DNA of 64,000 nt from a virus (IMGVR_UViG_3300037692_000137:1-64000); one strand, 5' to 3'. Shown: positions 2,711 through 29,498, counted from the first letter of the stretch. Numbers and translations are program-made. Notes: generated by a model not told the origin, from the sequence alone.

Positions 2711-3571
2711 ATGAAAAAGATAAGCACTTTATCTGTTGTAGCTGGGACTAATAACTGTAACGCAAAGTGCCCATTTTGCGTAGCCAAAATGACTCCGGTT
2801 CAAGGACTTATAGACAATATAAATCAACGTAACTTGGACATCGCCTGTCGCTTGGCTGAAAAATCCGGCGCTGTAACCGCACTAATAACTGGTAAAGGTG
2901 AACCTACCTTATACCCAGATACCATCTCGTTCTACCTCACACACCTCTCCAAGTACTTTCCAATCCTTGAATTACAAACCAACGGTTTGATACTCCCAGA
3001 CGATAAATATAATGAGTTTTTAAAAAGTTGGTATGATCTTGGCCTTACGACAATATCCTTGTCAGTTGTACACTATGAGGATGTGCGTAATAAAGAGGTT
3101 TATACTGGTAATAAAGACTACATTAATTTATCAGCATTAATAAATAAGTTGCATAAATATGGTTTTAGTGTTAGACTACGCGTTATAGCCATAAAAGGTT
3201 ATGTAGATTCTCCACTTGAAATAGCACGTATGATTAAGTTTGCTAAGGATAATAATGTCGCACAATTAACCATAAGGCCCATGGTGGCTTATAGGTCTAC
3301 CAGTAACAACAAAGTTCTAACCTGGGTTTTAATCCACGAGATTGGGCCTAACTGGGAACCTATTGTTACCAACACACTAAGTAAAATAAAAAATACATTC
3401 TTAATGGACCTTGTTCACGGCGGTAAAGTGTATGACATCTCTGGCCAGAATGTGTGTTTTAGCAACTGTTTAACTTTGCACCCTAACGACGTAGAATTAC
3501 GTCAATTAATATATTTCCCTGACGGCAAGCTAACCTACGATTGGAGATACAAAGGAGCACGAATACTATGA
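2711..3571 (+). CDS. radical SAM protein of unknown specificity
   Basis: CNAKCPFC (CxxxCxxC), ITGKGEPTLY and ELQTNG. The start is reassigned to ATG 2711 after a GAGG RBS. The stop overlaps the pncB start (ATGA). Confidence 0.85.
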   Translation: MKKISTLSVVAGTNNCNAKCPFCVAKMTPVQGLIDNINQRNLDIACRLAEKSGAVTALITGKGEPTLYPDTISFYLTHLSKYFPILELQTNGLILPDDKYNEFLKSWYDLGLTTISLSVVHYEDVRNKEVYTGNKDYINLSALINKLHKYGFSVRLRVIAIKGYVDSPLEIARMIKFAKDNNVAQLTIRPMVAYRSTSNNKVLTWVLIHEIGPNWEPIVTNTLSKIKNTFLMDLVHGGKVYDISGQNVCFSNCLTLHPNDVELRQLIYFPDGKLTYDWRYKGARIL

Positions 3572-4872
3572 ATATGAAGCCGATAATAGTAAGTCTATTA
3601 GATAATGATGCGTATACCTTTTATATGTGTCAATTTATACTTAGTAGATTTAAAGGCACTATTGCTAAGTATAAATATAAATGTCGTAATGGTAATGGTT
3701 TTCCGGCAGGCCTTACAGACGAGAAAAAATACTTGTTTGTGTCAATGATGAATAGCCAGATAGACTCTTTATGTGAATTAAAGTTCAACGAGGCTGAAAT
3801 CGCATTTTTACGTGGCACGGGCAAATTTAAGGAGGAATTCTTAGACTTTCTAAGGACGCTTACTTTGGACAGATCACATATCAAATGTACTTGTAGGGGT
3901 GGCGGCTTATACATTGAAATAGAAGGACCCATTGAGAAAGTAATATGGTATGAAACACCGATACTTGCTATAAATAGTGAATTGTATTATCGTTATTATG
4001 ATGTCGCAATAGAAAAGTATGTTGGAAGCTATCAGGATAACTTTAAACTAGAACACAGATTTACATTAACAAATAGTGAGCGGCACACAAATAGTTTAAA
4101 CGTGGCTAGGGAAAAGCTACAGGTTAAAATTAATGAGATACGCGAAGCATCGCTACCAGGTTTTAATATTGTAGACTTTGGTACAAGAAGACGGGCTACT
4201 TTAGGATGGCAAGACGAGGTACTAACCACCCTTAAAAAGGAAGTACCGTCTGTTTTAAAAGGTACCTCTAATTGTTACTTAGCTATGAAGCATGACTTAC
4301 CAATTGTAGGGACGATGGCACATCAGCTGTTTCAAATGTATCAACAAATGGCCGGCGCTACTGATTGTCAAACCGTACTACTATCAGAATGGCAGAGAGA
4401 GTACGGCGACCAACTTCTTATTGCTTTAAGTGATATATTTGGTTTTGAGGCATTTCTAGCAGACTTTGTCAGCTTTGCTCAAGCTTACACTGGTACTAGA
4501 CATGATAGTGCAAACCCATACATTTGGTGCGAAAAGCTGCTTGCTTTTTACAAAAAGTTAAATATTGTTGCAGGTAAAAAGACGGCCGTATTTAGTGATG
4601 GTTTAACTGTGACTACAGCTTTACAACTTTACGCTACATTCTATAAAAGAATAAACGTGGCCATTGCTATAGGCACTAATCTAACAAACGATACAGACGT
4701 CGGAGCACTACAAATTGTAATTAAACTTGTGGAGTTTAACCACGGCCCTGTAGCAAAGGTAAGTGACTCTCCAGGAAAAGGTATGTGTGAAAGTTACGAT
4801 TATGAAGAATACATAAACTACATTGTAGCTCAAAAAGAAAGGAGATACAAACAATGGCTAGAAAACAAATAG
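3568..4872 (+). CDS. pncB: nicotinate phosphoribosyltransferase
   Basis: Motifs SLLDNDAY, DFGTRRR, GTSN, GTMAH, RHDS, FSDGL, IGTNLTND and KVSDSPGK. Confidence 0.93.
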   Translation: MNMKPIIVSLLDNDAYTFYMCQFILSRFKGTIAKYKYKCRNGNGFPAGLTDEKKYLFVSMMNSQIDSLCELKFNEAEIAFLRGTGKFKEEFLDFLRTLTLDRSHIKCTCRGGGLYIEIEGPIEKVIWYETPILAINSELYYRYYDVAIEKYVGSYQDNFKLEHRFTLTNSERHTNSLNVAREKLQVKINEIREASLPGFNIVDFGTRRRATLGWQDEVLTTLKKEVPSVLKGTSNCYLAMKHDLPIVGTMAHQLFQMYQQMAGATDCQTVLLSEWQREYGDQLLIALSDIFGFEAFLADFVSFAQAYTGTRHDSANPYIWCEKLLAFYKKLNIVAGKKTAVFSDGLTVTTALQLYATFYKRINVAIAIGTNLTNDTDVGALQIVIKLVEFNHGPVAKVSDSPGKGMCESYDYEEYINYIVAQKERRYKQWLENK

Positions 4873-10219: not shown

Positions 10220-10972
10220 TTACGATATACAACTTAAAATGTTCGGTGTTCCTTCTGTTATTTCTATTGTATGTTCAAAGTGGGCAGAGTAGTTTCCTGA
10301 AGTGGCAGATATTGTCCAGCCATTAGCCTCTCTAAATACCCTACAATCAGGACCTTCTATGAGCATAGGTTCTATGGCTAGCACCATACCTGCTTTTAGT
10401 ATAGCACCTTTATTGCTTTTTCCATAATTTGGAATCTGTGGGCGTTCATGAAGCTCTTTACCTACTGCGTGGCCAACGAATTCACGCACCACTGAGTAGC
10501 CTTTACTTTCAGCATGCGTTTGTATGGCATTCGATATATCTCCTACACGATTACCAGCTAGTGCTTTTTCAATCCCTTTGTATAGGCATTCTTTGGTTGT
10601 GTCTATTAACCGTTGATTTTGTTTTGTTACAGCACCAACAGGCAGTGTAACTGCAGCATCACCATAAAAGTAGTCTTTAAGTATACCAAAATCTACACTA
10701 AGTATGTCACCGTCTTTAAGTATGTTCTTAGACGGAAAACCGTGCACCACATGGTTATTGACAGAGGCACAAATGGCGTATGGGTAGCCTTTGTAGTTTT
10801 TAAATCCGGCAAGGGCGTTACTGGTAGTAGCTAGCTCATTAGCCACCTGCTCTAAATAATCTGTTGTTATACCAGGAACCACCAAAGTTTTTAAATTACT
10901 TAGGAAATTGGCTACTATTTTACAACTAATTTTTATTTTCTCTATTTGTGTAGGTGTTTTTAATATTATCAT
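10220..10972 (-). CDS. map: type I methionine aminopeptidase
   Basis: Motifs CASVN..VVHGFP, GDILSVDFG, GDAAVT, GHAVG..LHE, AIEPML and SAHFEHT. Confidence 0.95.
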   Translation of the reverse strand: MIILKTPTQIEKIKISCKIVANFLSNLKTLVVPGITTDYLEQVANELATTSNALAGFKNYKGYPYAICASVNNHVVHGFPSKNILKDGDILSVDFGILKDYFYGDAAVTLPVGAVTKQNQRLIDTTKECLYKGIEKALAGNRVGDISNAIQTHAESKGYSVVREFVGHAVGKELHERPQIPNYGKSNKGAILKAGMVLAIEPMLIEGPDCRVFREANGWTISATSGNYSAHFEHTIEITEGTPNILSCIS

Positions 10973-15333: not shown

Positions 15334-15732
15334 CTAGGCTCTTGTAAGAATACAGCCTGTATCATCTATCCTAAAGGACTCAAAGTAAACTTTACCTGAT
15401 TTTACTAAGTTCCTTACATTTTTTTGTGCTCTACTCAATTTAGATTTACCTGTTTTTATTTCAATAAAAATAATTTCATTATCGTTAATAAGTAAACCGT
15501 CTATCTCTCTTCCGATAAAAATAAAATTTTCTGCCGCATAGGGCCAGGCGTTCGTAAAAGGGGCTAGGTTTTCACCTATTTTTCCCAGGCGCACTTCAGA
15601 GCTTTTCTTTTGACTTAACACAACATCATACTTATTACGCCAATCCTTAGTTTCTTTTTTAGCAACCAAATACTTTTTTAGACACAGCACCATTGCAACT
15701 GTACATATAACAATTATAAGTATGTCTGGCAT
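15334..15732 (-). CDS. Holliday-junction-resolvase-like PD-(D/E)xK endonuclease with an N-terminal TM anchor
   Basis: KSSEVRLGKIGENLAPF...IG..IDG......IIFIEIKTGKSKLS..Q, resembling the Endonuc_Holl family. Confidence 0.75.
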   Translation of the reverse strand: MPDILIIVICTVAMVLCLKKYLVAKKETKDWRNKYDVVLSQKKSSEVRLGKIGENLAPFTNAWPYAAENFIFIGREIDGLLINDNEIIFIEIKTGKSKLSRAQKNVRNLVKSGKVYFESFRIDDTGCILTRA

Positions 15733-15733
15733 A

Positions 15734-16480
15734 TTAATCCTTAATATCCTCTGCAGGGGGTTTATAGTCTACGCGCTTTTGGTATACTCCTTCAAGTTCC
15801 CGTGCTAAAGCTTCCCTTATTTTCTTTAAATTCCCCAATTTTGTATTTACATTATCTAGTTGACTTCTATCCAACAAGCCATTTATAGTTTGTTCCAACA
15901 CAACGGCGGGCTCAAAATGCCCTGACTGGACCAGAGACCTACTGGTAGCTTCTACCCTGTCACATATAAGTAGTACGGCCGCCTCTATGGACTTAGGTTT
16001 ACTACATGGATACCTAAAATCATTTGGATCAGCATCTTTACCTGCCCTATCATAAAAGTAAGTAGCCACGTCATTGCCATGATGTTGACTTATAACCTCT
16101 ATGATACTCCTTGTGAACTTTGGATCTCCTATAAGTATGTTTACTGAGTCCGCAACATGCCTTGTTATAATCTGTGTACTTATCCATGGGTCTAAGCTAT
16201 CATGGGGATTCTCATTATCCAACTGATTTTCTGAGAACATTGTTGGATTAACGCATTTACCTATATCGTGATAAACAGCACATACCTTCATAAATTGTAT
16301 GTCTAATCCTAATTCAGCACTTACTGCTTCTACCATAGAAGCCACTGCTTGACTGTGCTTAAAAGTACCGGGGCACTTAGTCTTAAACCACTTGGCTAGT
16401 GGATAGGAAGAATCTAGTAGTTCAGCTAGCTCAGTTTCTTGACTTGGGATAGCTATGTTATTACTACTTTCGTCGTTCAT
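15734..16480 (-). CDS. stand-alone HD (HDIG) phosphohydrolase, similar to the PgpH/7TM-HD catalytic domain
   Basis: Motifs PGTF.HS, YHDIGK..NP.MF.ENQ, HV, QHHG, FRYP..KP.S.EAA...ICD.VEA.SRSL. Confidence 0.85.
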   Translation of the reverse strand: MNDESSNNIAIPSQETELAELLDSSYPLAKWFKTKCPGTFKHSQAVASMVEAVSAELGLDIQFMKVCAVYHDIGKCVNPTMFSENQLDNENPHDSLDPWISTQIITRHVADSVNILIGDPKFTRSIIEVISQHHGNDVATYFYDRAGKDADPNDFRYPCSKPKSIEAAVLLICDRVEATSRSLVQSGHFEPAVVLEQTINGLLDRSQLDNVNTKLGNLKKIREALARELEGVYQKRVDYKPPAEDIKD

Positions 16481-16482
16481 TA

Positions 16483-16797
16483 TTAAACTCCTTGAATGTC
16501 ATTACCAAAAAGTTGCTTTCTAGCGTCTACTTTAGACAGGCGTAGCTTCTCAACACTATCAATTTTATTTTGATCTATCGTACCGTCTCCAAAGGCCATA
16601 CCTTCAGGGTCATCCCTATAATCCCAAATACCTCCTAAAGTCACCTCGCCAGTTTTATCATTGATAATAACTTCTAATGCTAAACCTAAGGGATGGAAGA
16701 ATAATCTATTGGCTTCTTGTAAAAACCCCAACTCTCTAAATTCTTTTATACTAATACGTTTAATTTCCATAATGTATCTCCAATATTTTATACACAA
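16483..16797 (-). CDS. hypothetical protein
   Basis: ORF in a co-oriented run; the likely start is MEIKRI. Confidence 0.7.
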   Translation of the reverse strand: MCIKYWRYIMEIKRISIKEFRELGFLQEANRLFFHPLGLALEVIINDKTGEVTLGGIWDYRDDPEGMAFGDGTIDQNKIDSVEKLRLSKVDARKQLFGNDIQGV

Positions 16798-16848
16798 AGT
16801 CAGTGTAAGTCTTTATTAAAATTGTTTCTAGTAAAAATTTATTTTACA

Positions 16849-16971
16849 TCAGGGCACGCTAATAATTAAACATCCTAGTACAGTTATCCCCGTACCAATA
16901 AAAACACGGTTGCTTATTATTAGCACTTGACCCACTAAAATAAGTAATAGGCCAATTTTTATTTTTAGCAT
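16849..16971 (-). CDS. small membrane protein
   Basis: Own translation, 40 aa, with two hydrophobic segments. Confidence 0.4.
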   Translation of the reverse strand: MLKIKIGLLLILVGQVLIISNRVFIGTGITVLGCLIISVP

Positions 16972-16977
16972 TTAACC

Positions 16978-17358
16978 CTATTTTTTATAATTACCTTTAC
17001 CTGGTATTACATTTCTAACCCCACCGATTGGGTCGTCTACATCACCTGCCCGGCGTGGTATCAGGTGGCAGTGCGCGTGCATTATCGTCTGGCCGGCAGA
17101 CTCACCACAATTCCAGCCAACATTAAACCCTGTTATAGTAGGGTCTTCACGTAGCATGTCATCTTTTAATATAGTACAGACACTGTATATGTCATCCAAC
17201 TCTTCACGACTTAAATCCCAATAAGTTTTTTTATGTGTAAAAGGGATGATTAGTTTATGTCCTTTTGTTACGGCATAAGCATCGTCTATGGCGTAGGCTG
17301 TTATTAATTCAAAGACAACTCTTCCTTCAAAAAACTTCTGGTCACAAAATAAACACAT
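16978..17358 (-). CDS. HIT-family hydrolase
   Basis: C.FC, GH.LIIP, GFNVGWNCGESAGQTIMHAHCHLIPR (HxHxH triad). Confidence 0.93.
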   Translation of the reverse strand: MCLFCDQKFFEGRVVFELITAYAIDDAYAVTKGHKLIIPFTHKKTYWDLSREELDDIYSVCTILKDDMLREDPTITGFNVGWNCGESAGQTIMHAHCHLIPRRAGDVDDPIGGVRNVIPGKGNYKK

Positions 17359-17360
17359 AA

Positions 17361-17855
17361 TTAAACCTCCAAACTTTTTATGGGTTCCCCTAAGGTTACC
17401 TCTTCATACAAATTACTCAAAATCTTTCTAGGTATTTTATAACCCAGCGTTATGTAGCCATCATTGGGGACCTCTATTAAAGGGGTCTCCCTTTCTGCTG
17501 TGTAGTCCTCTACAAGAACTATGAGGGCCTGTAAATTTTTAAAAACAAACAATTTTCTATCATTAATAAAGAAGTATATAAATATTCTACTCCCCTTTTC
17601 CCAAGCCTGCCATGGTCCTCCCGGAGAACGGTCATAGTACTTACTGTATCTCTCTATAAAAAAATTGGGTGTTTTATTTATACTATACGTATCTGTCTTA
17701 ACCTCAGTTGGGGTATTACTCTTTTTATATATAAAGTCTGAAGCGTAGCTTTTAACAAACCAATCAAAGTCATTTGGGTAGGTGTCTTTAATAAGTTGCT
17801 CACCTTTATTACCAACCGCTAGTTGTTTATTCCATTGATACATTTTATCCTCCAA
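17361..17855 (-). CDS. PD-(D/E)xK nuclease-like protein
   Basis: G..GE, SDF and EVKTD...NFFIE motifs; overlaps the dam gene end. Confidence 0.55.
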   Translation of the reverse strand: MEDKMYQWNKQLAVGNKGEQLIKDTYPNDFDWFVKSYASDFIYKKSNTPTEVKTDTYSINKTPNFFIERYSKYYDRSPGGPWQAWEKGSRIFIYFFINDRKLFVFKNLQALIVLVEDYTAERETPLIEVPNDGYITLGYKIPRKILSNLYEEVTLGEPIKSLEV

Positions 17856-18696
17856 ATAAATCCACTGTTAGTTTTTTTATTGGGTAGTTGGTTATTAAAA
17901 CTTCTTCTACTTTCCCCCTTTTTGCAGCGTCACTATTAATACATCTACTAACATCTATAGTATTAACAGTATACTCTTTATACAAATCCTGTATAAAGGA
18001 GGTGCTTGCATTAGACAGTAGCCACTTAATCTCGCGTCTATTTAATTCATCACACAAGTTCTTTACAAACTGTTGGTCCTTCTGATTAAAGTCATCCTTA
18101 TTGTAGCCTGTGAATGAGTTACTATCTAGTATATCATACGGAGGGTCCATATAAACAAAGTCACCACTCTTAACATAGTCTAATATTTTACTGAAATGTG
18201 CACGTTCAATGTGTGTATCTTTAAGACTTTCAGCACACTCCATTAATAAAAACTTATCATTGATAGTAGGGCCATTTCTAAAACCAAAGGGAACATTAAA
18301 GTAGCCCTTGGAGTTTACCCTATGTAAACCATTAAAGCAAGTTTTATTTAAGAATAAAAATCTAGACGCACGTTCTACGTCACTTGTATCCTTGTATTCC
18401 TTACACTGATCTTGTTCTCTAATATAGTAAAAGTACTCTTCATGATTTATATGCTGCTCTAATGAGTCCAGTAGCTCATCTGTGTGGTCTCTTAGTACTG
18501 TATAGAAATTAATTAGTTCTTCATTACAGTCTATAAGTATAGCGTTTTTTGGTCGTAAATGAAAAAAGAGGGAGGCCCCTCCTGCAAAATTCTCTATGTA
18601 TCTATTATAAGCGGTGGGCATATAGCTAGTTAAATCTTTTAATAACTTACCTTTCCCGCCAGCCCACCTTAATGGGGACTTAGCCATACTAATCAC
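17845..18696 (-). CDS. dam: Dam-family (D12 class) DNA adenine methyltransferase
   Basis: Motifs SPLRWAGGK, ENFAGGASL, NKTCFNGL.RVN..G.FNVPFG, YMDPPY and LSN. Confidence 0.9.
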   Translation of the reverse strand: MISMAKSPLRWAGGKGKLLKDLTSYMPTAYNRYIENFAGGASLFFHLRPKNAILIDCNEELINFYTVLRDHTDELLDSLEQHINHEEYFYYIREQDQCKEYKDTSDVERASRFLFLNKTCFNGLHRVNSKGYFNVPFGFRNGPTINDKFLLMECAESLKDTHIERAHFSKILDYVKSGDFVYMDPPYDILDSNSFTGYNKDDFNQKDQQFVKNLCDELNRREIKWLLSNASTSFIQDLYKEYTVNTIDVSRCINSDAAKRGKVEEVLITNYPIKKLTVDLFGG

Positions 18697-18698
18697 CT

Positions 18699-19676
18699 TT
18701 AAACCGATTTAGTTTTATTAAAGTGCTTTTCTTCTAAGTCAAAAACGTTTTTAATCCTAAACTTAGCTACATCTACCCAGTGTGGGTCTTTATCGTACCC
18801 TATAAAGGCCCTATTGTTTTTTCTACATGCCATACCCGTACTTCCCGAGCCACAGTAGATGTCTAAAACCACTTGTTCTGGACTATTAGTTACTAACTTT
18901 ATTAAAAAGCACATCAACGACACTGGTTTAAGTGTTTCATGTTCATTCTCTATTTTACCATTAATAGTTCTCTCGTCTCTTGTTGGGCGAGGACAATAAA
19001 TAACGTTGGTAGCAATACTGCCCCTAGCATCAGGTACCCAGCCTTTCTGTTTCATACCACCAAAAGTATTACTTTTAATGTCTGACTGTACATGTTTTTT
19101 ACCAGTGTCTTCAAATTTCTTTATAATGGATGTGTGGTCTCCTTTATAAACCATGCGTGTATCATTTATATTAAACAAGTTGGTTCTATAGTTTTTCCAG
19201 TTTTGTTCTTCTGTGCCTTCAAGCTTTTTTCTATACACAAAAACTGGGTTGTATACATTACGTATACGACTTCTGAATGCCTCGTCATCAGTTTTAAAAC
19301 CCTTCGGATGGGTCCCCTGATAGCACCATATGATAATGTCTCTAAAATCAAAATCTGTTTTTGACATTATATCAAAAGTGTTTGCCATCATGGATGGTTG
19401 TCCAAAAAACAGTAGATAACCTCCTGGCTTTAATACACGATAGCACTCCGCCCACACCTCCTTTGTAGGAAGCAGACTATCCCAGTCTTTATTTATATTA
19501 ACACCAAAGGGCGGGTCACACACGATAGCGTGAATGGAATTAGCTGCTTGTCCTTTTATTAGCTCCTCACAGGCGCCCTCTAATACAGAGTACTGTGCCC
19601 CTGTTCCTGTATATATGTTAGACCTTGGACGTCCTTTTTCCGGCCTAACCTTACAATCAAAAATGTCATAAATCAT
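18699..19676 (-). CDS. N4/N6 DNA methyltransferase (beta class)
   Basis: Motifs CDPPF, ECYRVLKPGG, HETLKP..L and VLDIYCGSGSTG. Confidence 0.88.
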   Translation of the reverse strand: MIYDIFDCKVRPEKGRPRSNIYTGTGAQYSVLEGACEELIKGQAANSIHAIVCDPPFGVNINKDWDSLLPTKEVWAECYRVLKPGGYLLFFGQPSMMANTFDIMSKTDFDFRDIIIWCYQGTHPKGFKTDDEAFRSRIRNVYNPVFVYRKKLEGTEEQNWKNYRTNLFNINDTRMVYKGDHTSIIKKFEDTGKKHVQSDIKSNTFGGMKQKGWVPDARGSIATNVIYCPRPTRDERTINGKIENEHETLKPVSLMCFLIKLVTNSPEQVVLDIYCGSGSTGMACRKNNRAFIGYDKDPHWVDVAKFRIKNVFDLEEKHFNKTKSV

Positions 19677-19682
19677 TGCAAA

Positions 19683-22600
19683 TCACCTATCTAATGTATG
19701 TCTTATTAATGCCGATAAATCAGTTAATGTAAAGGGTTTATTTAAGTATCCTAAAGCACCCATAGCCTTTGTTTCACCTATAGGCCCAGCGGCAGAGTAG
19801 CCACTAGCAATTATTACTTTAGCTTTAGGATCGTAGGCCAGCAGCTTTTTTAAACAGACGATACCACCCATACCGGGCATATTAAGATCTAATACTACCA
19901 GGTCTACTTTAGTTCCTTTGGTGTAGACAGCTAAAGCCTCCTCACCATTTTTAGCTACTATAACATTATAACCTTGTACTGTCAAGTAGTTTTCAGTTAA
20001 GCTTGTTAAAGACTCTTCGTCATCGACTACAAGTATAGTCTCATTACCCCCAGTCTCTTCTGTTACAACAATTACTGGTGGTACGTGTTTTATAACCGCG
20101 GTACTATCTGCAGGCAGATAGATACAAAAAGTTGTTCCCTGCCCAACCACACTATCACATGTTATGTAGCCGTCATGATTTTTTACAATGCCGTATACTA
20201 CATATAAGCCTAAACCAGAACCACCCGTAGTTTGTTTTTTAGTGGTAAAGAACGGATTAAAAATCTTGCTTATATTTTCTTGAGGGATACCACAACCAGT
20301 ATCACGCATTTTAAGTACAACATAATCCCCCTCTTTAAACTCTATGTGACCGGCACCTACGTACTTATTACAAGTGCTTATGTCAAGCTCACCGCCATTG
20401 GGCATGGCATGCATAGCATTTAATGCTAGGTTCATTATTACTTGTTCCATCTGCCCAATATCCGCTCTAATAGGGGCCAAGTCTTTAGCTAAAAAGTAGG
20501 TGATATTTATCATCTTAGGCATAGTCCTTTGCATAAGACTTACGGTACTCTCTATCGAATTATTTAAGCTAATTGGCTCTTTAAAACTCTTTTCTTTTTC
20601 AGAAAAGTACTTAAGCTGCCCTGTTAACCTGGCACCCTTATTAGCAGCCTCTACTACAGCCTGCATGTACTCTTTTTTTGGTACTATTTCCTTTTGTAAG
20701 TCTAACATAATTAAATCAGAGTACCCTAAGATAATCTGTAATATGTTATTAAAGTCGTGTGATAGCCCACCAGACAGTGTGCCTATGGCCTCCATCTTCT
20801 GGGCCTCACGTAATTGCTTTTCTAAACGCAATGTTTTAACTACATTACGCTTTCGCTGTATTATACGCCAAACATTGTCTGCTAGTGTAGTTAACTGGTC
20901 AACATCTTTACTACTGTACTCCCCCTGATGCTTATTGCCTACACCAAATATGGCCACTATCTTATTACCATCGAAAACTGGTACATTCATATGATTAGTC
21001 ACAGGTACATGACCTTCAGGCAACCCACGCTTATGTGTGTAATTTGGATAGTCATTTATAAAAACAGCTTCTCGTTGTCTTAAGCAATCCGCCCATACAC
21101 CACACTTGTCTAAATTATAAGTAACGTTTAGTTTCTCTGACTGAGCGCACCCCTTCATGGCCACACCATTATACGCCACTTGGGTTATTTTATCTTCATC
21201 TTTATTAACTAAACTAACGTAACTTATGGAACTGTCACACAGCTTTGAGATACTATCAGCTACAAACGCAAATATGGTTGATTCATCACGTTCTTCCATT
21301 TGACTAAGTTCTAATAATATTTCTTTACGTTGGTTCGATAGTTTAATTTCCTCTTCAGCATGTTTACGTTCAGATATATCAGTGATAACACAGTGTGTCT
21401 GTTTAAAATTACCCACATCGTCGTAACCAACTCTGCCACTTACACTAACGCATACTAACGCACCATCAGATTTTTTTAATACAAGCTCTATACCAGAAAG
21501 ATAGCCAAGCTCTTTAAGTTTAGGTAAAAGGGCGTGTAACTGCTCATGATACCGTTCGTCAACAAAAGAGCACACACCACGCCCTTGTATCTCTTCTTTT
21601 TTGTAGCCTAATAGTTCCAGCCAAGCTTTATTAACATCTAGTATTTTACCCTGCATATCTAATGACTGATAAGCTAGTGGAGCGTTCATAAACAAGTCTT
21701 TATACTTTTTCTCATTCTCTAAAAGACGGGATGAGGACTGTCGTAATTCCACCTGCCTTAACTCGTTAGACCGTAGTGCTAAAAAAATACCTAATAAACC
21801 AACTACATAAACTATGGCATGGCTATAAACATCAGTTACAGTTTTAGAATCCGCCAGCTCATGTATACGATCCATAGGGATACTTATACTTAAAATACCT
21901 ACTAGATCGCCGGATTTAAAGCTGGTATGGCAGTTTTTACACCCGTCTACAGCGTAAATTGTATGCATATAATTAAAGGTATTCTCATCTGTAAAGTAAC
22001 TTTCTGTTTTTGATTTTTCCTGTATATCTTTTAGTAGTGTTTCTTCCCAAGGTTCTAGTAGGCCTCTGCCTATATCTGTATTAAAACCTATAACACGCGA
22101 TTTACTAGCAACCATACGTGTGTCTACTGCTCTACTCACTGACTCTAGATTCTTCACAGTACTATATGAGTAACGCATAAGGGTGTTTGAATTAAGAAGC
22201 GCTGTATCAGCGTCTAGACACTTTTTTACGTAAGTATGGTCTTTATTGCTATTATCTTTAGCAAAAGCGCCGAGCAGACTACCGTAGTTTGTTACCCAAG
22301 ATCTAAGTAATAAATCTTTTTCAAAGATGTTTTGTGCCTCTACCAGCGCTGTGCGTTCTACTATACCGTGTATTCTAGCATGATTATAAATTAATGAGGT
22401 TGATATTAAAGCAGTCCAGGTAAAAAATATTACGGAGTATGCTGTTGTGTTAAGTTTACCACCAAATTTGGTTATAAACAGAAGTATCGTTGCTATAATA
22501 ATAATAAAAAGTATACTATAAGGAACAACAGTTTTTAGATTATAAATATTTATTGTTTCTGTTTGTTTAGCTGCTTTTAAAAACCAATTACGTAATGAAC

Positions 22601-23306
22601 TATTGTATGGTGATGTTTCTACATCCACCCATTGTTGCATATAACTATCTATGGTAGTAAGGACATCAAGATTAGTATCTTTAAGTGTTGTAAATGATGT
22701 GACAGAGGGCGCAAAAAATAAACTAGTTCTTTTTATATCACGTGTATTTAGTACAGGGCTAATAATTAGATTATTTGCAACTATAAAGTCTACAGCATGT
22801 GTAGCCATAGCTTTAAATAATTCAGCATTATTTGGATACTCCACTAGTAATGGTGATATACCATAGCTGTGGCAGTAGTCTAAAAAGGCCTGTGTGATAA
22901 CAGCTCCTTTTATAGAGCCTACTTTTCTGCCTTTTATATCAGCAAAAGTGTCTATGTTTATATTATTATGTGTATAAATTGTGCCCCAAAAGGATAGCAC
23001 AGGCACTTTTGAAAAAGAAAATTCTTGCTCAAGAGCGGCTGTTTTAACTACGGAAGGTAAAAGTTGTATCTTACCTACTCTTAATTCGTCTAAACACTCT
23101 GAAAAATTACATTCTTTGTATAGTATAGTCCAATTTTCTAATTTAGCCACAGAATTAAGTACATCTATATATAATCCCTGCGCTTTACCATCCTCATAAA
23201 ATGTGATTGGTTTGTTATCAAAAACACCAACTACTAATTCTTTAGCTGGTACTAATTGGGCTAACAAAATAAATATAATAGTGAGTGTAAGGACTTTTAT
23301 CTTCAT
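19683..23306 (-). CDS. hybrid sensor histidine kinase (SBP, heme-c sensor, PAS, GAF, HisKA, HATPase, REC)
   Basis: Signal peptide, family 3 solute-binding domain, TM segments, CKNCH, PAS, GAF, HDFNN, N/G1/F/G2 boxes, and a receiver domain (VVDDE, VLDLNMPG, KPF). Confidence 0.93.
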   Translation of the reverse strand: MKIKVLTLTIIFILLAQLVPAKELVVGVFDNKPITFYEDGKAQGLYIDVLNSVAKLENWTILYKECNFSECLDELRVGKIQLLPSVVKTAALEQEFSFSKVPVLSFWGTIYTHNNINIDTFADIKGRKVGSIKGAVITQAFLDYCHSYGISPLLVEYPNNAELFKAMATHAVDFIVANNLIISPVLNTRDIKRTSLFFAPSVTSFTTLKDTNLDVLTTIDSYMQQWVDVETSPYNSSLRNWFLKAAKQTETINIYNLKTVVPYSILFIIIIATILLFITKFGGKLNTTAYSVIFFTWTALISTSLIYNHARIHGIVERTALVEAQNIFEKDLLLRSWVTNYGSLLGAFAKDNSNKDHTYVKKCLDADTALLNSNTLMRYSYSTVKNLESVSRAVDTRMVASKSRVIGFNTDIGRGLLEPWEETLLKDIQEKSKTESYFTDENTFNYMHTIYAVDGCKNCHTSFKSGDLVGILSISIPMDRIHELADSKTVTDVYSHAIVYVVGLLGIFLALRSNELRQVELRQSSSRLLENEKKYKDLFMNAPLAYQSLDMQGKILDVNKAWLELLGYKKEEIQGRGVCSFVDERYHEQLHALLPKLKELGYLSGIELVLKKSDGALVCVSVSGRVGYDDVGNFKQTHCVITDISERKHAEEEIKLSNQRKEILLELSQMEERDESTIFAFVADSISKLCDSSISYVSLVNKDEDKITQVAYNGVAMKGCAQSEKLNVTYNLDKCGVWADCLRQREAVFINDYPNYTHKRGLPEGHVPVTNHMNVPVFDGNKIVAIFGVGNKHQGEYSSKDVDQLTTLADNVWRIIQRKRNVVKTLRLEKQLREAQKMEAIGTLSGGLSHDFNNILQIILGYSDLIMLDLQKEIVPKKEYMQAVVEAANKGARLTGQLKYFSEKEKSFKEPISLNNSIESTVSLMQRTMPKMINITYFLAKDLAPIRADIGQMEQVIMNLALNAMHAMPNGGELDISTCNKYVGAGHIEFKEGDYVVLKMRDTGCGIPQENISKIFNPFFTTKKQTTGGSGLGLYVVYGIVKNHDGYITCDSVVGQGTTFCIYLPADSTAVIKHVPPVIVVTEETGGNETILVVDDEESLTSLTENYLTVQGYNVIVAKNGEEALAVYTKGTKVDLVVLDLNMPGMGGIVCLKKLLAYDPKAKVIIASGYSAAGPIGETKAMGALGYLNKPFTLTDLSALIRHTLDR

Positions 23307-23323
23307 AGTAGTACCTCTGTACT

Positions 23324-23358
23324 GTGGGGGCTATTGCCTTATAGACGCAAGCCCCCAC
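23324..23358. promoter_or_regulatory. GC-rich hairpin upstream of the kinase RBS
   Basis: GTGGGGGCT/AGCCCCCAC outer stem with an inner TTGC/GCAA stem. Confidence 0.45.
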
Positions 23359-23418
23359 GATAAACCAATTAGTTTTTACAGGTATTAAATATTCTTTTTA
23401 ATAGACAAAGCAGTTTAC

Positions 23419-23727
23419 TTAACCAGCTTGTACTATCTCCAGTGCGCCGGGGGCATTTGGCGCAATAAAATCTAAAGGGACTGCAGTCACAACGCTCATG
23501 TCACTCTCGTTGCCGACCGCATCATAAGCAGTTACACCAAGATTAAAGATACCTTCTTCTCCCGCAGCCACTGTAGATAAGTCTACCTCCATCTTCATAT
23601 TAAGATTAATTGAAGGTGAGTCATAAGTTAATTCTGCTGGTGCTTCTATAAAGTATAGTTTGTAACCAGCCACGTCCACACTACTAGAACCTGGGAATTT
23701 TAAAGTTTTACTTACAATTTTTGCCAT
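23419..23727 (-). CDS. FN3-like small protein
   Basis: DVAGYKLYF...LGVTAYDAVGNESDMS pattern. Confidence 0.65.
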   Translation of the reverse strand: MAKIVSKTLKFPGSSSVDVAGYKLYFIEAPAELTYDSPSINLNMKMEVDLSTVAAGEEGIFNLGVTAYDAVGNESDMSVVTAVPLDFIAPNAPGALEIVQAG

Positions 23728-23745
23728 TTTAGTTTCCTCCTAAGT

Positions 23746-24438
23746 TTATTGGATTGTTATTGCTCCAGCGCCAGCTATCCAGCCGGAGAGTAGTTTTGGT
23801 GCAGAGACCCAATCTACCATGTTATCTGCTTTTAAATCTACTCTATATAGACCTGTGACAGGTAATAGTATAGTTACTGTATTTATAGCTACTGTAGATG
23901 TTACACGATAAACCTTTTTATTAATGTCATACAGTCTATATGTATATGACGTAGCACCAGTCACTGGGGGCCAAGATATCACTATGGCTTTATCTGTTGT
24001 GCCTACATATAGGTTACCTCCTAAAAGTTGAGCATCTGGGAAATTTATTGTTATAGTATTAGGGTCTATTGCACCACTAAGTACAGGTGGTTCTATTACA
24101 GGTACAGCTGCGGCCGCAATAGACACAACAAGCTCATTGGAATAGTCGCTCTCAAAATTATCGGCATCATAGGCAGTTGCCGCAAAATATTTTGTGACAC
24201 CATCAGGTAAATCAGTTACTGTGTAAGTTACCTTACCATCTACGGTTGCTGGTAAACCAACATCTATGACCACGTTGTAAGTACGAGACTCACTACCATA
24301 ATGGATTTTATATCCGGCCAGCTTATCGTCAGTATTAGGTGTCCAAGTAAAAGTTAGATCTGCCGCATACAAGGTACTGCTTATACTGAGTAAACATAAA
24401 AATAAAATTAATGCGGTGCTTTTAATAAAACAGCTCAT
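23746..24438 (-). CDS. secreted fibronectin type III domain protein
   Basis: Signal peptide, then LTFTW.PN....LAGYKIHYG...Y....DVG...YFAATAYD....ESDYSNE. Confidence 0.8.
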   Translation of the reverse strand: MSCFIKSTALILFLCLLSISSTLYAADLTFTWTPNTDDKLAGYKIHYGSESRTYNVVIDVGLPATVDGKVTYTVTDLPDGVTKYFAATAYDADNFESDYSNELVVSIAAAAVPVIEPPVLSGAIDPNTITINFPDAQLLGGNLYVGTTDKAIVISWPPVTGATSYTYRLYDINKKVYRVTSTVAINTVTILLPVTGLYRVDLKADNMVDWVSAPKLLSGWIAGAGAITIQ

Positions 24439-24441
24439 TAT

Positions 24442-26016
24442 TTATAACCCCAAGTCATTGTATATGTCATCTATATTATGAATTATTTTATAAGGTATAT
24501 TTAGTTTATTATATGTATTTAGTATATTAGTATTTACCTCACTTCTAAATTTAGGGTCCAAATCACGTACACCATCAGCTAACTGAAAGTTAAACATATC
24601 CATATTTGGTATATAAATAGTCTTATATAAATTTAGTATATGGTCCTTTATTACACCTTCATAGGCTGACATTGTAGAATTGCTGCCATGTATAGTAAGA
24701 TCGTAACAATAAGCGTCCATTACAGACCTATCAGCAATAACAAAATCAACCTTATCTTGTAATTCTAATTCCTCAGTTATTTGTTTACATGTTAACCATC
24801 TTGGAGTATGGGAACCTGCCCCCTTATTTATAATAAAGGGGCATTTCCGAGCTAACTCGTCGAGGACCACAGCATTTTTACCGGCCAATTTCATTTTAGT
24901 ACAAAGACTATACGCTATGGTGCTTTTTCCAGAGTTTTTTAATACTGTACCATCTGCATGGAGAAATAAATTATTACCGTCAAGAGTAAATCCATAATAA
25001 GTGCCAATACCAAGAGGGGTTACATTACGTATGCCCACTCTTGATGTTGTTCTTTGAGGATTTTTTACCTGTACCGCCTTTTTATGTGCAAGTTTACATG
25101 GTATTATATCTATACCTCTTGTTAAATTTACCCTATAATAATATCCCTCTTTACCATTATTTGTGCAAACACATTTTACTTTTTTTATTGTTGTGTGTAT
25201 ACCGCAACTTCTAGAAATATAAAATAAATCATAGGCTAGTTGTTTAGACTTTAATTTTACTTCATATCTACCTTTACTACGTTGATCTAAGTGTCCATCG
25301 GCATCCAGTATACCGGCTATAATGGATAAACGTTGTTCTATACTTGCATTAAAATAATCTAAGGGTATATGTTTATTATTAATTAAATTATATTTCTGTA
25401 AATCAACTAAAAAACTATTCCCTTTACCTCTAACATTAGTTATTCCATAAGTATACTTAGTATTACCAACGTGTTTAAAAAACAAATTTCTGCTTTCAGC
25501 GAAACACTTAAATGTATTTAATATAATTTCATCTGTATTAGTTAATCTTGTTCCTGCTGAATGCCCATCACCAAGCCAAACACCCAGTATATATGGCGGT
25601 ATTGCTAAGGTACTACTTACTGCTCTTTTAATAACAGCATTAAACTTACAAAGAATTCTTTGTTTTTGTTTACCTAATTTTAAATAATTTTTTACTGTTA
25701 TTATACGTATATCACCTAATTGTTGCTTTTTTAGTGATCTTTTTGTAGCCCCACTTTTACGAGATTGTGAGTATTGTAATACTAACTCGTGACTTGTATT
25801 ATAAATATGTTTTATTCCATCAATATATTCAAATTCATAAAGATCTTCCCTACCGTCTTTAAGTTCCAACACTCTTCTTGGGGTAGAGTCATCCCCCATT
25901 AAAACATCACCAACTACTATAAGTTCGACTGGTTTTATGGTACCATCATACATTCTAACTAAGGTGCCTTTACCAAAACAACCATGCGTGCCGCTAATAG
26001 CTATAATTTTCTTCAT
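24442..26016 (-). CDS. P-loop kinase/ATPase (AAA_28/NadR-like) interrupted by an intein
   Basis: The spliced Walker A reads GTHG+SGKST. Also E.AR, ADRSVMD.Y.Y and DGVRD motifs. Confidence 0.85.
   Translation of the reverse strand: MKKIIAISGTHGCFGKGTLVRMYDGTIKPVELIVVGDVLMGDDSTPRRVLELKDGREDLYEFEYIDGIKHIYNTSHELVLQYSQSRKSGATKRSLKKQQLGDIRIITVKNYLKLGKQKQRILCKFNAVIKRAVSSTLAIPPYILGVWLGDGHSAGTRLTNTDEIILNTFKCFAESRNLFFKHVGNTKYTYGITNVRGKGNSFLVDLQKYNLINNKHIPLDYFNASIEQRLSIIAGILDADGHLDQRSKGRYEVKLKSKQLAYDLFYISRSCGIHTTIKKVKCVCTNNGKEGYYYRVNLTRGIDIIPCKLAHKKAVQVKNPQRTTSRVGIRNVTPLGIGTYYGFTLDGNNLFLHADGTVLKNSGKSTIAYSLCTKMKLAGKNAVVLDELARKCPFIINKGAGSHTPRWLTCKQITEELELQDKVDFVIADRSVMDAYCYDLTIHGSNSTMSAYEGVIKDHILNLYKTIYIPNMDMFNFQLADGVRDLDPKFRSEVNTNILNTYNKLNIPYKIIHNIDDIYNDLGL
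24934..25980 (-). mobile_element. intein with LAGLIDADG homing endonuclease (349 aa)
   Basis: Runs CFGKGT...ADGTVLKN with Ser at +1. Endonuclease motifs LGVWLGDG and AGILDADG. Confidence 0.88.
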
Positions 26017-26017
26017 A

Positions 26018-26788
26018 CTACATCCATACCCCAGACATATCCAAAGAGCGGCCTACCGGATTAGCAATCTGAATAAGCTTTCTTAAATTACAAGAAAAGG
26101 AGTTGCCGTAACTTCCATTTTGAAGCTTTGTAATAAAATGTGTAGATTCTGGATAGCGTTCAATATATAGTGCTAGCAAATCACCCATAAATTCTTCGCT
26201 ATTTAAATTAGTAAACATTTCATTACAGGCTGTAAAATCCTCATCTTCAAATCCCCAAAAGCTGCCGTCAACAATGGCGTAGTCATGTACAATATCATCT
26301 TGTGTACGTCTTACACATACTACTAGAACATCTAAAGTAAGGTCTTCTGAAATGGCCGCTTTCATTCTACGAGGTAGAATATTCACAGCTTTAACGTGTT
26401 CCGGATAGATGGAGGCGTTTGACAGCAATTTCTTATTATTACCTTTAACTGACTTAATTTCAATTGCCATTTTAGCATCCAAAGATACTATATCAAAAGC
26501 ACACTGTGAGGGCATAAGCTGCCATGTAAATTCTGGGAACATTGCTGCAATATACTTTCTAAGCCTCTCAGAATTTTTGTCAACACTACCATTAAAGGCC
26601 CATGACCTATCAGCAGCGGATAACCACTCAGCGCAGACTCTAGCTACTGCCAATTTAATGGGGTTACTGCTAGCAGCAATTCTAATATTATTTTTAGGCT
26701 CCTTATATACCTTACTACGCGTCGTTTCCAATCCAGTTGCTGAATTAATTACTACAAAACTACTTCCTTTTCCTTGTACCTGTTGCAT
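26018..26788 (-). CDS. PD-(D/E)xK restriction-endonuclease-like protein
   Basis: FDIV......IEIKS motif; specificity not assignable. Confidence 0.5.
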   Translation of the reverse strand: MQQVQGKGSSFVVINSATGLETTRSKVYKEPKNNIRIAASSNPIKLAVARVCAEWLSAADRSWAFNGSVDKNSERLRKYIAAMFPEFTWQLMPSQCAFDIVSLDAKMAIEIKSVKGNNKKLLSNASIYPEHVKAVNILPRRMKAAISEDLTLDVLVVCVRRTQDDIVHDYAIVDGSFWGFEDEDFTACNEMFTNLNSEEFMGDLLALYIERYPESTHFITKLQNGSYGNSFSCNLRKLIQIANPVGRSLDMSGVWM

Positions 26789-26801
26789 AATAACACGCTC
26801 C

Positions 26802-26990
26802 TTAGTTTAAGTCTAATCCCGATGCTACTGCTGCCAATTCCCCACCGCAGTCGCACAACATCTGTCGGCCAAAAACTTTTGTATCAAGTACTTTTTTGGC
26901 GCCGCAGCTTTTACACACATACTGAAATAACCTTAAATTAGATAGTTCTTTTTTATTTGCTGGTTTTTCTCTACCATTTTCTTTATACAT
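26802..26990 (-). CDS. small zinc-ribbon protein
   Basis: CKSCG...CDCGG. Confidence 0.6.
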   Translation of the reverse strand: MYKENGREKPANKKELSNLRLFQYVCKSCGAKKVLDTKVFGRQMLCDCGGELAAVASGLDLN

Positions 26991-27500
26991 TTACTCTTCC
27001 TCCGGCATCATGTCATAGAACGCTGGGTCTACAGACAGTATGTAGGTTGCTGACATAGCCAGCGCCTCTTTATTTTCATTTATTAACCAAGTATATTTAG
27101 GTTTATCTGCCCAAAGTCTAAGACGCTCTGTAACTATTTGTCTGGCAAAATCTTGCCCAATAATTAATGATTTAAATTGTGTACTATACTTACTTCTAAT
27201 GTATCTAAGATAGCCACTGCGCATAAGAGCCCATACCAAAGATACTTTCCATTCATGTAGTAGATCTTCAGTAGTCACATAAACTACCCTGTAGTTCTTA
27301 AATTTAGTATCTATAATATCATTGGTTAGTTTATAGTTTAAACTATAAACCCCATTAATAACTGTACCAAACATTGGTATAGTAATATAAAAAGAGTTTT
27401 TATCTGATGTAAAGTCTAGTCTATAAGTTAAAAGCAGTGCTCTTAATATAACTTCAATTTCTGTAGCTAATGCTTCAATGTCCATAAAAGTTACCTGCAA
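26991..27500 (-). CDS. hypothetical protein
   Basis: 169 aa ORF abutting the next gene. Confidence 0.65.
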   Translation of the reverse strand: MQVTFMDIEALATEIEVILRALLLTYRLDFTSDKNSFYITIPMFGTVINGVYSLNYKLTNDIIDTKFKNYRVVYVTTEDLLHEWKVSLVWALMRSGYLRYIRSKYSTQFKSLIIGQDFARQIVTERLRLWADKPKYTWLINENKEALAMSATYILSVDPAFYDMMPEEE

Positions 27501-27538
27501 TTAGATAGGGGCCTAAGCCCCCACCCATTTAAATTTAT

Positions 27539-29485
27539 TTAGCGACCGTCAGAACACGGCTCAGCACAAGAGCAACCATCGCCACAAGTAGCCACTTGAC
27601 TGACTTCTTCCTTTTCGGCAGCAGTAAAGGATACCTTGCCTTTTTTGGCACTTACTTTAATAGTGATATCCTTTTGTACATCATCTTCAGCCAGTAGCTT
27701 TTTTGCCAGTGGTGTAGCAACCTCACGCTCTATAGCCCGCTTTAACGGTCTTGCTCCGTAGTCAGAATCTATACCTTTTTCATAAACGAACTCTTTTATT
27801 TTCTCGTCAAATTCGAGCCAGAGTTCTTTATAGTCTGTGTCGTTAGCCCTTAAGTTGTCATTCAATTTGTATAACTCAATATCTATAATACGCATAAAAT
27901 CTTTCTTATTTAAAGACTTAAAGTGTATGATAGAGTCAATACGGTTAAGAAACTCAGGTTTAAACTTGTTCTTTAACGCTTTGTCTAAAGCAGCTTCTTT
28001 TTTGTTCTCAGTAATTTCAGCTACACTACCGAAGCCAATCGTCTTTCTAATACGTTCTACTTCATCTACACCAACATTAGATGTCATAACTATAATAGTC
28101 TGATTAAAATCAACTGTTTTACCTTTACCATCAGTTAGTCTGCCTTCCTCAAGAATTTGAAGAAGTAGCTCATGCACTTTCCTAGAAGCCTTTTCAACCT
28201 CATCAAATACGATAACGCTAAAAGGGTTTTTCATGACCGCGTTAGTAAGAAATCCACCGGCTTCATGACCAACATAACCTGACGGAGAACCGATTAGCTT
28301 AGCATATTCATGGTCTGCTGAATATTCAGAGCAATCAATATTTATCAGGTTATCTCGTCCTTTAATAAGCTCATCTGCCAAAACTTTAGTAGCTTGTGTC
28401 TTACCTACACCAGTACGGCCAGCAAATAAGAACGAACCGATAGGCTTATTTGGCGCTTTGAGTCCGACACTAGCACGTTGAATGGCCTCTGAAAGCTTAT
28501 CCACAGCGTCGTCTTGACCAACCAGCATAATTTTCATGTTGTCTGCTAGTTTTAGTAAGTCCTCTTTAGGTAAATCTCTAAAAGACTTTTTCTTCTTTTT
28601 GTTGCCGCCAGCATACTGCCCCATAGTACCAGATGTAGCTGACTTCTTTTTACTTCCACAAGAACCGCCACAAGAGTCATCCTCTTCATCTGGTTCATCT
28701 GAAAGGGCATGAGCATTTTCATACGTTAAAAACTCGTTACACGATCTACACAACTCATAAAGTTCATGCATAAGTAACGGCGGTGCTACACGCTTTGGTA
28801 TTCCCAGGTCATCCAAAAGTGTGAACAGCCCCTCAAAACCATCCACGCAAAATGAAACAACAAACGTAGCGAAGCTGGTTCTATTATGAAAATACCTATT
28901 CTTTAAAATAGCCTCAGTGTCTTCCGGTGAGAAGCGTTTGATCTGAATATATTGTCCAATACGTTTCCACCACTTTTGTACTACAGTGTATGTAAGTTTA
29001 TTTAAATCTGTATTATTTTTATTGGTATCCACAGTGGCTACGTCTGAAATCGCTGGCGGAATGTCCTTAAAAGAATCTCTTTCTGCTTTTTGACTCCAGA
29101 ATTTAGTGTCTGTAAGTGCTTTAATATCATCTGACACATTGTCAGTTTTAAGTTTTATAACATGGTTTTTATTGATTACTAAATTATCTGGATCTAGCTT
29201 AGGGTTGTGTGCTATAATGGCAGCCATAACCTCTAATCTAACCACCAGTAAATCATCTACCTCAAGCTTTTCTCCAGCTAATTGAAATAATAGTTGATTT
29301 ATATTAGCCACACATGTAGCAATAACATAGTCCTCATACAACCCTTTTGAAATCTGCCCTTTTTCCTTAGTTAGGTAGGCCAGCTTATCTTCAACCTCGA
29401 TTTCTGGTAATTGAAGAACAAGAATTTCAAAGTCATTAGCTTTTTTAATTTTAACTCTAAATACTTGGTAGTCATTTTTAGACAT
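27539..29485 (-). CDS. ClpA/ClpB-like AAA+ ATPase with only the D2-type module
   Basis: Motifs GQDDAV, GSFLFAGRTGVGKT, IDCSEY, KLIGSPSGYVG, FDEVEKA, KPEFLNRID and YGARPLKR. The start is reassigned to ATG 29485 (AAAGGAG RBS). Confidence 0.9.
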   Translation of the reverse strand: MSKNDYQVFRVKIKKANDFEILVLQLPEIEVEDKLAYLTKEKGQISKGLYEDYVIATCVANINQLLFQLAGEKLEVDDLLVVRLEVMAAIIAHNPKLDPDNLVINKNHVIKLKTDNVSDDIKALTDTKFWSQKAERDSFKDIPPAISDVATVDTNKNNTDLNKLTYTVVQKWWKRIGQYIQIKRFSPEDTEAILKNRYFHNRTSFATFVVSFCVDGFEGLFTLLDDLGIPKRVAPPLLMHELYELCRSCNEFLTYENAHALSDEPDEEDDSCGGSCGSKKKSATSGTMGQYAGGNKKKKKSFRDLPKEDLLKLADNMKIMLVGQDDAVDKLSEAIQRASVGLKAPNKPIGSFLFAGRTGVGKTQATKVLADELIKGRDNLINIDCSEYSADHEYAKLIGSPSGYVGHEAGGFLTNAVMKNPFSVIVFDEVEKASRKVHELLLQILEEGRLTDGKGKTVDFNQTIIVMTSNVGVDEVERIRKTIGFGSVAEITENKKEAALDKALKNKFKPEFLNRIDSIIHFKSLNKKDFMRIIDIELYKLNDNLRANDTDYKELWLEFDEKIKEFVYEKGIDSDYGARPLKRAIEREVATPLAKKLLAEDDVQKDITIKVSAKKGKVSFTAAEKEEVSQVATCGDGCSCAEPCSDGR

Positions 29486-29498
29486 TAAGTTGTCTCCT

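Follow-up and report, generated by a model that had tools for sequence, protein, structure and literature searches.

Large uncultured phages encode a soluble, sensor-less PgpH-type HD protein that probably erases a cyclic-nucleotide signal

We describe a phage-encoded HD protein that is unambiguously a PgpH-subtype HD domain over its full length, and that probably lets phages erase a cyclic-nucleotide signal. As far as sequence allows such a judgement, what is new here is a phage-restricted, soluble and sensor-less clade of the PgpH family of HD phosphodiesterases. The gene lies in a stretch of 64,000 nucleotides (hereafter, the window) that forms the first part of a 234,228-bp virus record in IMG/VR, with a completeness of 89% as estimated by CheckV. 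The window carries phage hallmark genes and genes in the style of jumbo phages, including those for an intein-bearing family A DNA polymerase, a ribonucleotide reductase and a ClpB-like ATPase, together with Dam and N6/N4 methyltransferases and five tRNAs. Three minus-strand genes, at 24442-26016, 31703-33493 and 56529-59723, are broken by inteins (Hint and LAGLIDADG); they code for an AAA_28 protein, a protein resembling transglutaminases and the family A DNA polymerase. Another intein sits within the ClpB-like gene of a relative (locus L015). The phage also encodes a nicotinate phosphoribosyltransferase (NAD salvage; 3541-4872, plus strand) and an M24 metallopeptidase (10220-10972, minus strand).

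The HD gene and its immediate surroundings have the following layout, in window coordinates:

15734..16480, minus strand: gene for the PgpH-like, soluble HD (HDIG) phosphodiesterase, predicted as such; open reading frame of 248 aa with an ATG start
15764..16408, minus strand: catalytic core (residues 25-239), the part that aligns with the PgpH HD domain of the crystal structure
16488..16493, minus strand: Shine-Dalgarno sequence AAGGAG, 7 nt 5' of the ATG, read from the sequence
16483-16485, minus strand: stop codon of the upstream gene, between the ribosome-binding site and the ATG of the HD gene
15334..15732, minus strand: PF10107 (Endonuc_Holl) nuclease-like gene, 132 aa (Pfam 3.2e-16)

The open reading frame had been called beforehand in a sequence-only reading of the window; it is real and has exactly the limits given there, with its own ATG and ribosome-binding site. 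Since the stop codon of the upstream gene falls inside the interval between the ribosome-binding site and the ATG, the genes are tightly packed, and the HD gene and its neighbours form a co-directional block and a single transcription unit. The PF10107 gene begins 1 nt after the HD stop codon and is probably part of the same transcript. A promoter scan was uninformative (43 sites against 36.6 expected). Comparison of the HD gene with its orthologue in a sister phage (locus L007; 87% amino acid identity) gave a dN of 0.077 against a dS of 1.94 (dN/dS ~0.04), which indicates strong purifying selection.

The HD protein matches the Pfam HD model (1.8e-10) and the NCBIfam HDIG model TIGR00277 (1e-14), and it has weak NCBIfam matches to the RNase Y and Cas3 HD domains. 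It has no Pfam match to the HD-GYP type (HD_5/PF13487), and no family in PHROGs matches it. A phmmer search against all PDB sequences returned a single strong match, the HD domain of Listeria monocytogenes PgpH (4S1B/4S1C; E = 5.3e-36), which is the one PgpH HD domain with a solved structure. Residues 25-239 of the query align with chain residues 4-220 of 4S1B, covering 217 of the 222 residues in the chain. An AlphaFold2 model, built with 30 family members (pLDDT 85.6, pTM 0.82), shows predicted disorder only at residues 1-12 and 237-248. Using Foldseek, this model superposes on 4S1C and 4S1B with target-normalised TM-scores of 0.88-0.92 and rmsd values of 1.7-2.8 Å, the best superposition being that on 4S1C (TM 0.92, rmsd 1.7 Å); the next-best folds are HD-GYP structures, at TM 0.34-0.54. 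The full-length fold is thus the one found in PgpH (Lmo1466) of L. monocytogenes and YqfF of Bacillus subtilis, to which the HD protein is 33-36% identical. This structural match, together with the complete motif set H..HD..K..H..HH..D, bears out the PgpH-like identity that had been assigned from the sequence.

Residue-by-residue alignment predicts H42, H71, D72, H108, H133, H134 and D174 as the metal ligands of the HD protein, and alignment to PgpH predicts K75 as the catalytic lysine. D174 and K75 align with D648 and K547 of PgpH. The six remaining ligands, from H42 to H134 in the order given, align with what we take to be their PgpH counterparts, H514, H543, D544, H580, H604 and H605. The metal ligands, the catalytic lysine and aspartate, and the signature motifs of the family are therefore the same in the phage protein as in PgpH and YqfF. 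In the mechanism described for PgpH, Asp648 activates a metal-bridged water and Lys547 stabilises the oxyanion (PMC12072042).

We aligned the HD regions of 137 stand-alone and 233 full-length 7TM-HD proteins. Each of the eight catalytic positions holds the same residue in every one of the 137 stand-alone proteins, and in no fewer than 232 of the 233 full-length HD regions. About 20 further positions hold the same residue in at least 85% of the proteins in both groups; these conserved non-ligand positions include P37-G38, G74, F82, E84-N85-Q86, H93, P98, S101, G135, R156-Y157, P162, E177-A178, Q207, R236 and Y239. The signature residues of the PgpH family (ENQ, NPH, RY, DxxEA, Q and R..Y) are kept in the HD protein. 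Of the positions conserved among the 7TM-HD proteins, those altered in the phage clade show mainly conservative exchanges (A to V/S/C, G to S/T/C, L to F), and no known catalytic residue is among the positions that differ between the two groups of this alignment. The retention of ~20 non-ligand positions despite ~1.4 substitutions per site between the clades argues for a substrate pocket common to both, and we infer that the substrate pocket of the stand-alone clade is largely retained. Because the signature residues of PgpH are kept besides the metal ligands, a 3'-5' cyclic adenylate, the same kind of substrate as that of PgpH, is the most economical guess.

Cellular PgpH and YqfF carry a 7TMR-HDED domain and a 7TM region, whereas the phage protein has neither. 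Its maximum 19-residue Kyte-Doolittle hydropathy is 1.09, compared with 2.16-3.22 in 120 full-length 7TM-HD proteins. In an HMM search, the 7TM region (PF07698) had no match in the HD protein or in any of the six frames of the 234-kb record. The same record holds no match to 7TMR-HDED (PF07697) above threshold; the sole match (11.7 bits, E = 0.02) lies 212 kb away and is due to chance. These observations uphold the description of the protein as stand-alone and soluble. A word-indexed search yielded 891 matches to relatives of near-equal length. Among the matches listed, these relatives form at least 120 clusters at 90% identity, all of 236-282 aa, with 54-100% identity to the HD protein and scores of 294-558 bits. 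The Pfam domains of the listed relatives belong to the HD superfamily only (PF01966, joined in a few cases by PF13487 or PF08668), and none is a membrane-region domain. By comparison, the top-ranking full-length 7TM-HD proteins are 33-40% identical and score no higher than 155 bits.

A trivial explanation would be that the HD open reading frame is a functionless remnant of a broken 7TM-HD gene, or misassembled host DNA. Such sequences do occur among the database matches: four short proteins (P0270, P0274, P0299 and P0383) are truly fragments, and the matches in GenBank 'phage' records are UNVERIFIED contigs, with long-form genes in the three whose frames were read. For the gene studied here, the 234-kb record contains no remnant of a 7TM or 7TMR-HDED region, the gene has its own ribosome-binding site and ATG and is packed tightly among phage genes, and its dN/dS is ~0.04. 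Moreover, 137 relatives of the same length keep invariant catalytic residues, and the gene is present in complete phage genomes of 312 and 315 kb with terminal repeats. Taken with the at least 120 clusters of near-length relatives, this check shows that the gene is not a broken one; the remnant explanation is effectively refuted, and we leave it almost no chance.

When IMG/VR was scanned with a profile as guide, the stand-alone gene turned up on 41 viral contigs, at 40-87% identity. Fifteen of these contigs are at least 100 kb long, seven are at least 200 kb, and two are the complete genomes of 312 and 315 kb, which have direct terminal repeats. Among prokaryotes, a motif-guided scan of one genome per species (185,579 species) gave only four matches, all on short MAG contigs; the scan used two family-specific peptide patterns, which are specific to the near family, so that distant cellular members may escape it. 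The taxon labels of the four matches are mutually inconsistent (Saccharibacteria, Desulfobacteraceae, Muribaculaceae and Woesearchaeota), and we rejected them as evidence for a host. We read these matches as mis-binned phage DNA, because three of the four loci contain genes that are recurrent neighbours of HD on viral contigs.

The GenBank phage collection gave only eight matches, 29-37% identical and all in records without annotation. The four records that we fetched (H1, H5, H7 and H8) are titled UNVERIFIED, and the three of them whose frames were read (H5, H7 and H8) hold long-form pgpH genes of 490-734 aa. We discarded the 'phage' records OR848126.1, MT835511.1 and MT837542.1 (loci L059, L061 and L062) as apparent bacterial contamination of phage assemblies, carrying long-form pgpH; in one of them, the next gene 3' of pgpH is a 157-aa open reading frame. 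The stand-alone family was not found in verified cultured phages. In BFVD, which holds predicted structures of UniProt viral proteins, the best match is a generic HD protein (TM 0.43, E = 6e-3). In the collections scanned, the family is therefore apparently phage-only and restricted to uncultured, mostly very large phages.

An HMMER search of 1.84 billion representative sequences returned 5,940 matches, 1,711 of them below 1e-30, in a ranking with the stand-alone proteins on top that grades into full-length proteins. To relate the two forms, we inferred an unrooted tree from the HD regions of 43 stand-alone and 55 full-length proteins (IQ-TREE, LG+C20+F+G4, quick search), from which proteins shorter than 225 aa or with incomplete HMM coverage were left out and for which the full-length matches were randomly subsampled. 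In this tree, 39 of the 43 stand-alone proteins form one clade (SH-aLRT 100), apart from all full-length 7TM-HD proteins, and the branch between the two groups has lengths of 0.66 and 0.71 to the two sides of the midpoint. Four entries scored as stand-alone (P0270, P0274, P0299 and P0383) fall outside this clade and adjoin near-identical full-length proteins; from this position they are evidently truncated gene calls, and we rejected them as genuine stand-alone members. Because the 39 proteins lie together on one side of a long, fully supported branch, the soluble form is a single, old and well-separated lineage, and not the product of repeated recent trimming of host genes. The sequence-only reading had pictured a 7TM-HD protein trimmed to its catalytic domain, which is too simple in view of the separate clade, the long branch and the 34-40% identity to any 7TM-HD protein. 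As the tree is unrooted (usable outgroups are ~15% identical), the clade may have lost the sensor or may retain an ancestral soluble form, and both fit.

The surroundings of the HD gene were compared across related loci. In ~10 related phages, the gene order is Rad52-like, ClpB-like AAA+, 165-aa protein, (70-aa protein), HD and PF10107 nuclease-like. Of 45 related loci, 11 include a PF10107 homologue within the stretch examined; in nine it lies no more than 4 kb from the HD gene, mostly directly downstream, which makes the PF10107 gene a recurrent neighbour. Its product has an N-terminal transmembrane helix (hydropathy 2.35 at residues 4-22) and would be a membrane-anchored nuclease encoded within a replication module. 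In a more distant lineage, the HD gene is followed by (small ORFs), an NAD-dependent DNA ligase, a 90-aa protein, an HNH protein and a glycosyltransferase, or, in an alternative order, by a calcineurin-like phosphoesterase further along. In 11 loci of another lineage, an NAD-dependent DNA ligase lies one to three genes 3' of HD. The context of the HD gene is thus a replication and recombination module. Neither the HD locus nor the related loci show a recognisable anti-defence island or a c-di-AMP-related context.

In the present phage, the Rad52-like, ClpB-like and 169-aa genes lie at 26991-30488. Unlike in 10 related phages, where the trio adjoins the HD gene, the two are here kept apart by an island of ~10.5 kb that is specific to the lineage (window 16483-27500, minus strand) and contains the hybrid kinase listed below, the Dam and N6/N4 methyltransferases, a 164-aa protein, a HIT hydrolase, a phrog_3954 protein and small ORFs. 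The HIT hydrolase matches the ThsC HIT model of PADLOC weakly (7e-8). Three candidate partnerships of the HD gene were rejected: that with the HIT gene as a general one, since it is a neighbour in the three closest loci only; that with the ligase, since the genome of the present phage has no NAD-ligase; and that with PhoH. In bacteria, pgpH is found in the operon phoH-pgpH-ybeY. The PhoH homologue of the phage (C1:186349-186918, minus strand) lies ~170 kb from the HD gene. Three further genes bear on the discussion of function:

16978-17358, minus strand (window): HIT-family hydrolase, 126 aa (Pfam HIT 3.8e-12), 0.5 kb upstream of the HD gene
19683-23306, minus strand (window): hybrid sensor histidine kinase, 1,207 aa (SBP_bac_3, PAS, GAF, HATPase_c and REC), 3 kb from the HD gene
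C1:190494-191570, minus strand (genome): REC-HD_5 (HD-GYP-type) protein (HD_5 4.6e-41), ~170 kb from the HD gene

The REC-HD_5 gene adjoins the gene of a second REC protein, and its product is 30% identical to the HD protein over 120 residues (E = 4e-5). The hybrid kinase has only one full-length relative (60% identity), on a 236.8-kb contig labelled 'Patescibacteria group bacterium' that is probably a mis-binned sister phage, and it has no close cellular relative. Because the same genome carries the REC-HD-GYP protein and the hybrid sensor kinase, the phage clearly devotes genes to sensing and altering the nucleotide messengers of its host, and second-messenger manipulation is a theme of the genome. 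The 234-kb record encodes no diadenylate cyclase (DAC domain), and neither this record nor five large relatives contain a c-di-AMP riboswitch (RF00379). In control genomes, 7TM-HD proteins occur almost only where a diadenylate cyclase is present, and Escherichia coli and Caulobacter have neither, a co-occurrence that fits a family dedicated to c-di-AMP.

We propose, with slightly better than even confidence, that the HD protein is an unregulated di-metal phosphodiesterase, opening c-di-AMP or related cyclic adenylates into linear molecules. Such an enzyme would work in the cytoplasm without a sensor, would have a PgpH-type HD site occupied by two metals (Fe/Mn), and would bind a 3'-5'-linked cyclic adenylate, with c-di-AMP as the prime candidate. 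A metal-bridged hydroxide would attack one phosphodiester while K75 would stabilise the leaving oxyanion, and the product would be linear and 5'-phosphorylated, that is, 5'-pApA from c-di-AMP. Because the 7TM region and the extracellular sensor of cellular PgpH are missing, the enzyme is presumably unregulated and would be active once made, from a gene that would be transcribed together with replication and recombination genes. PgpH itself is c-di-AMP-specific (PMC5575661) and is inhibited by (p)ppGpp (PMC5575661; PMC10117814). The substrate specificity of the stand-alone clade may have drifted, given its long branch and its distance from every 7TM-HD protein. Also weighing against the proposal are the DNA-metabolism genes that make up the conserved neighbourhood, and the negative searches for a c-di-AMP riboswitch and a cyclase described above.

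As to which signal is erased, we slightly favour the host's own c-di-AMP pool over immune signals, a tentative view that we hold well short of even confidence and to which the second-messenger theme of the genome adds a slight lean. With this pool collapsed, the uptake of potassium and osmolytes would be released from repression, and (p)ppGpp would rise. When c-di-AMP accumulates in Listeria, prophage gene expression and phage production are suppressed, whereas ppGpp promotes phage production (bioRxiv 10.64898/2026.05.13.725036).

The sequence-only reading had instead put forward the HD protein as a candidate eraser of cyclic-nucleotide immune signals. If it acted specifically in counter-defence, it would destroy the signals of CBASS, Pycsar or type III CRISPR systems, and the effector would never be activated. 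A phage-restricted and unregulated family would suit this role, and jumbo phages are predicted to use several phosphodiesterase families against nucleotide immune signals, according to a 2021 survey (PMC7824862). The survey also cites an analogy, in that DHH-type enzymes of the c-di-AMP class also degrade cA4 (PMC7824862). The phage protein, however, shows no homology or fold likeness to Acb1, Apyc1 or ring nucleases among its PDB or BFVD matches, and PADLOC yields only generic Cas3-HD matches for it (E = 3e-6 or weaker). There is no defence or anti-defence neighbourhood in view: the gene keeps its position with replication and recombination genes in two phage lineages, and PgpH has been reported as specific for c-di-AMP (PMC5575661). 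Specific counter-defence is still plausible, and we judge it unlikely. A wider version, in which the stand-alone clade comprises widespread, phage-only and broad-spectrum erasers of cyclic adenylates, is likewise unlikely; such enzymes would convert c-di-AMP-like CBASS signals, the cA3-cA6 of type III CRISPR systems and related messengers to 5'-phosphate products, and would make up a new counter-defence class derived from a housekeeping second-messenger phosphodiesterase.

The gene order also raises the question of whether the PgpH-like fold was recruited to another phosphoester substrate, serving the DNA/RNA metabolism module in which it is encoded. Candidate substrates would be 5'-pApA or nanoRNA, (p)ppGpp, 2',3'-cyclic or 3'-phosphate nucleic-acid ends (end-healing, ligation/recombination) or a nucleotide precursor. 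Pointing in this direction are the order from the Rad52-like gene to PF10107 in ~10 loci and the ligase one to three genes downstream in the 11 loci of another lineage, although the ligase link is not general, the present genome having no NAD-ligase, and although the synteny of phage replication modules is often inherited and not functional, with only two to three independent lineages represented. The HIT hydrolase 0.5 kb upstream would fit as well, but this neighbour is confined to the three closest loci. HD domains are chemically versatile, as the weak RNase Y and Cas3 HD matches illustrate, and a long branch lies between the stand-alone clade and the 7TM-HD proteins. Nevertheless, PgpH-specific non-ligand residues are kept almost without exception, which would be unexpected if the substrate class had changed. 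We find a different substrate improbable, to the same degree as specific counter-defence, and return to a cyclic adenylate, c-di-AMP foremost, as the preferred substrate.

The proposed job, degradation of c-di-AMP by a soluble enzyme, has counterparts in cells. Both the DHH-DHHA1 protein DhhP/Pde2 (PMC10117814) and AtaC (PMC7132281) break down c-di-AMP as soluble cytoplasmic proteins that stand alone; their folds are unrelated to that of the HD protein, so that the likeness is confined to function. HD-GYP enzymes, which act on c-di-GMP or cGAMP, are likewise members of the HD superfamily, with two or three metals at the active centre and, as proposed for the phage protein, a cyclic dinucleotide as substrate; they belong to a different subfamily. 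Acb1 (anti-CBASS), Apyc1 (anti-Pycsar) and the ring nuclease AcrIII-1 embody the same idea, hydrolysis of a cyclic-nucleotide messenger by a small, soluble protein of phage origin, and none of them is among the PDB or BFVD fold matches of the HD protein. Six families of counter-nucleotide phosphodiesterases have been predicted in jumbo phages by the 2021 survey, five of them being HD-GYP, HD-alarmone, DHH, calcineurin-like and 2H (PMC7824862); the PgpH type is not among these five. Full-text literature searches found no paper on a phage PgpH-like enzyme, and literature searches and BFVD gave no virus-encoded c-di-AMP phosphodiesterase. The phage proteins are set apart from cellular PgpH and YqfF by their separate clade and by the loss or lack of both accessory regions.

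The family is large and strongly conserved, with at least 120 clusters at 90% identity, 41 IMG/VR contigs and complete phages of more than 300 kb. If its members degrade c-di-AMP, these phages would take over the one essential bacterial second messenger, which governs potassium and osmolytes as well as the cell wall and (p)ppGpp; this would fit the suppression of phage production by c-di-AMP in Listeria (bioRxiv 10.64898/2026.05.13.725036). If immune cyclic adenylates are the target instead, the known anti-CBASS and anti-CRISPR enzymes would be joined by a new class. In both cases, an unregulated catalytic domain of the PgpH type, in a protein that is small, soluble and easily assayed, would be of use as a research tool.
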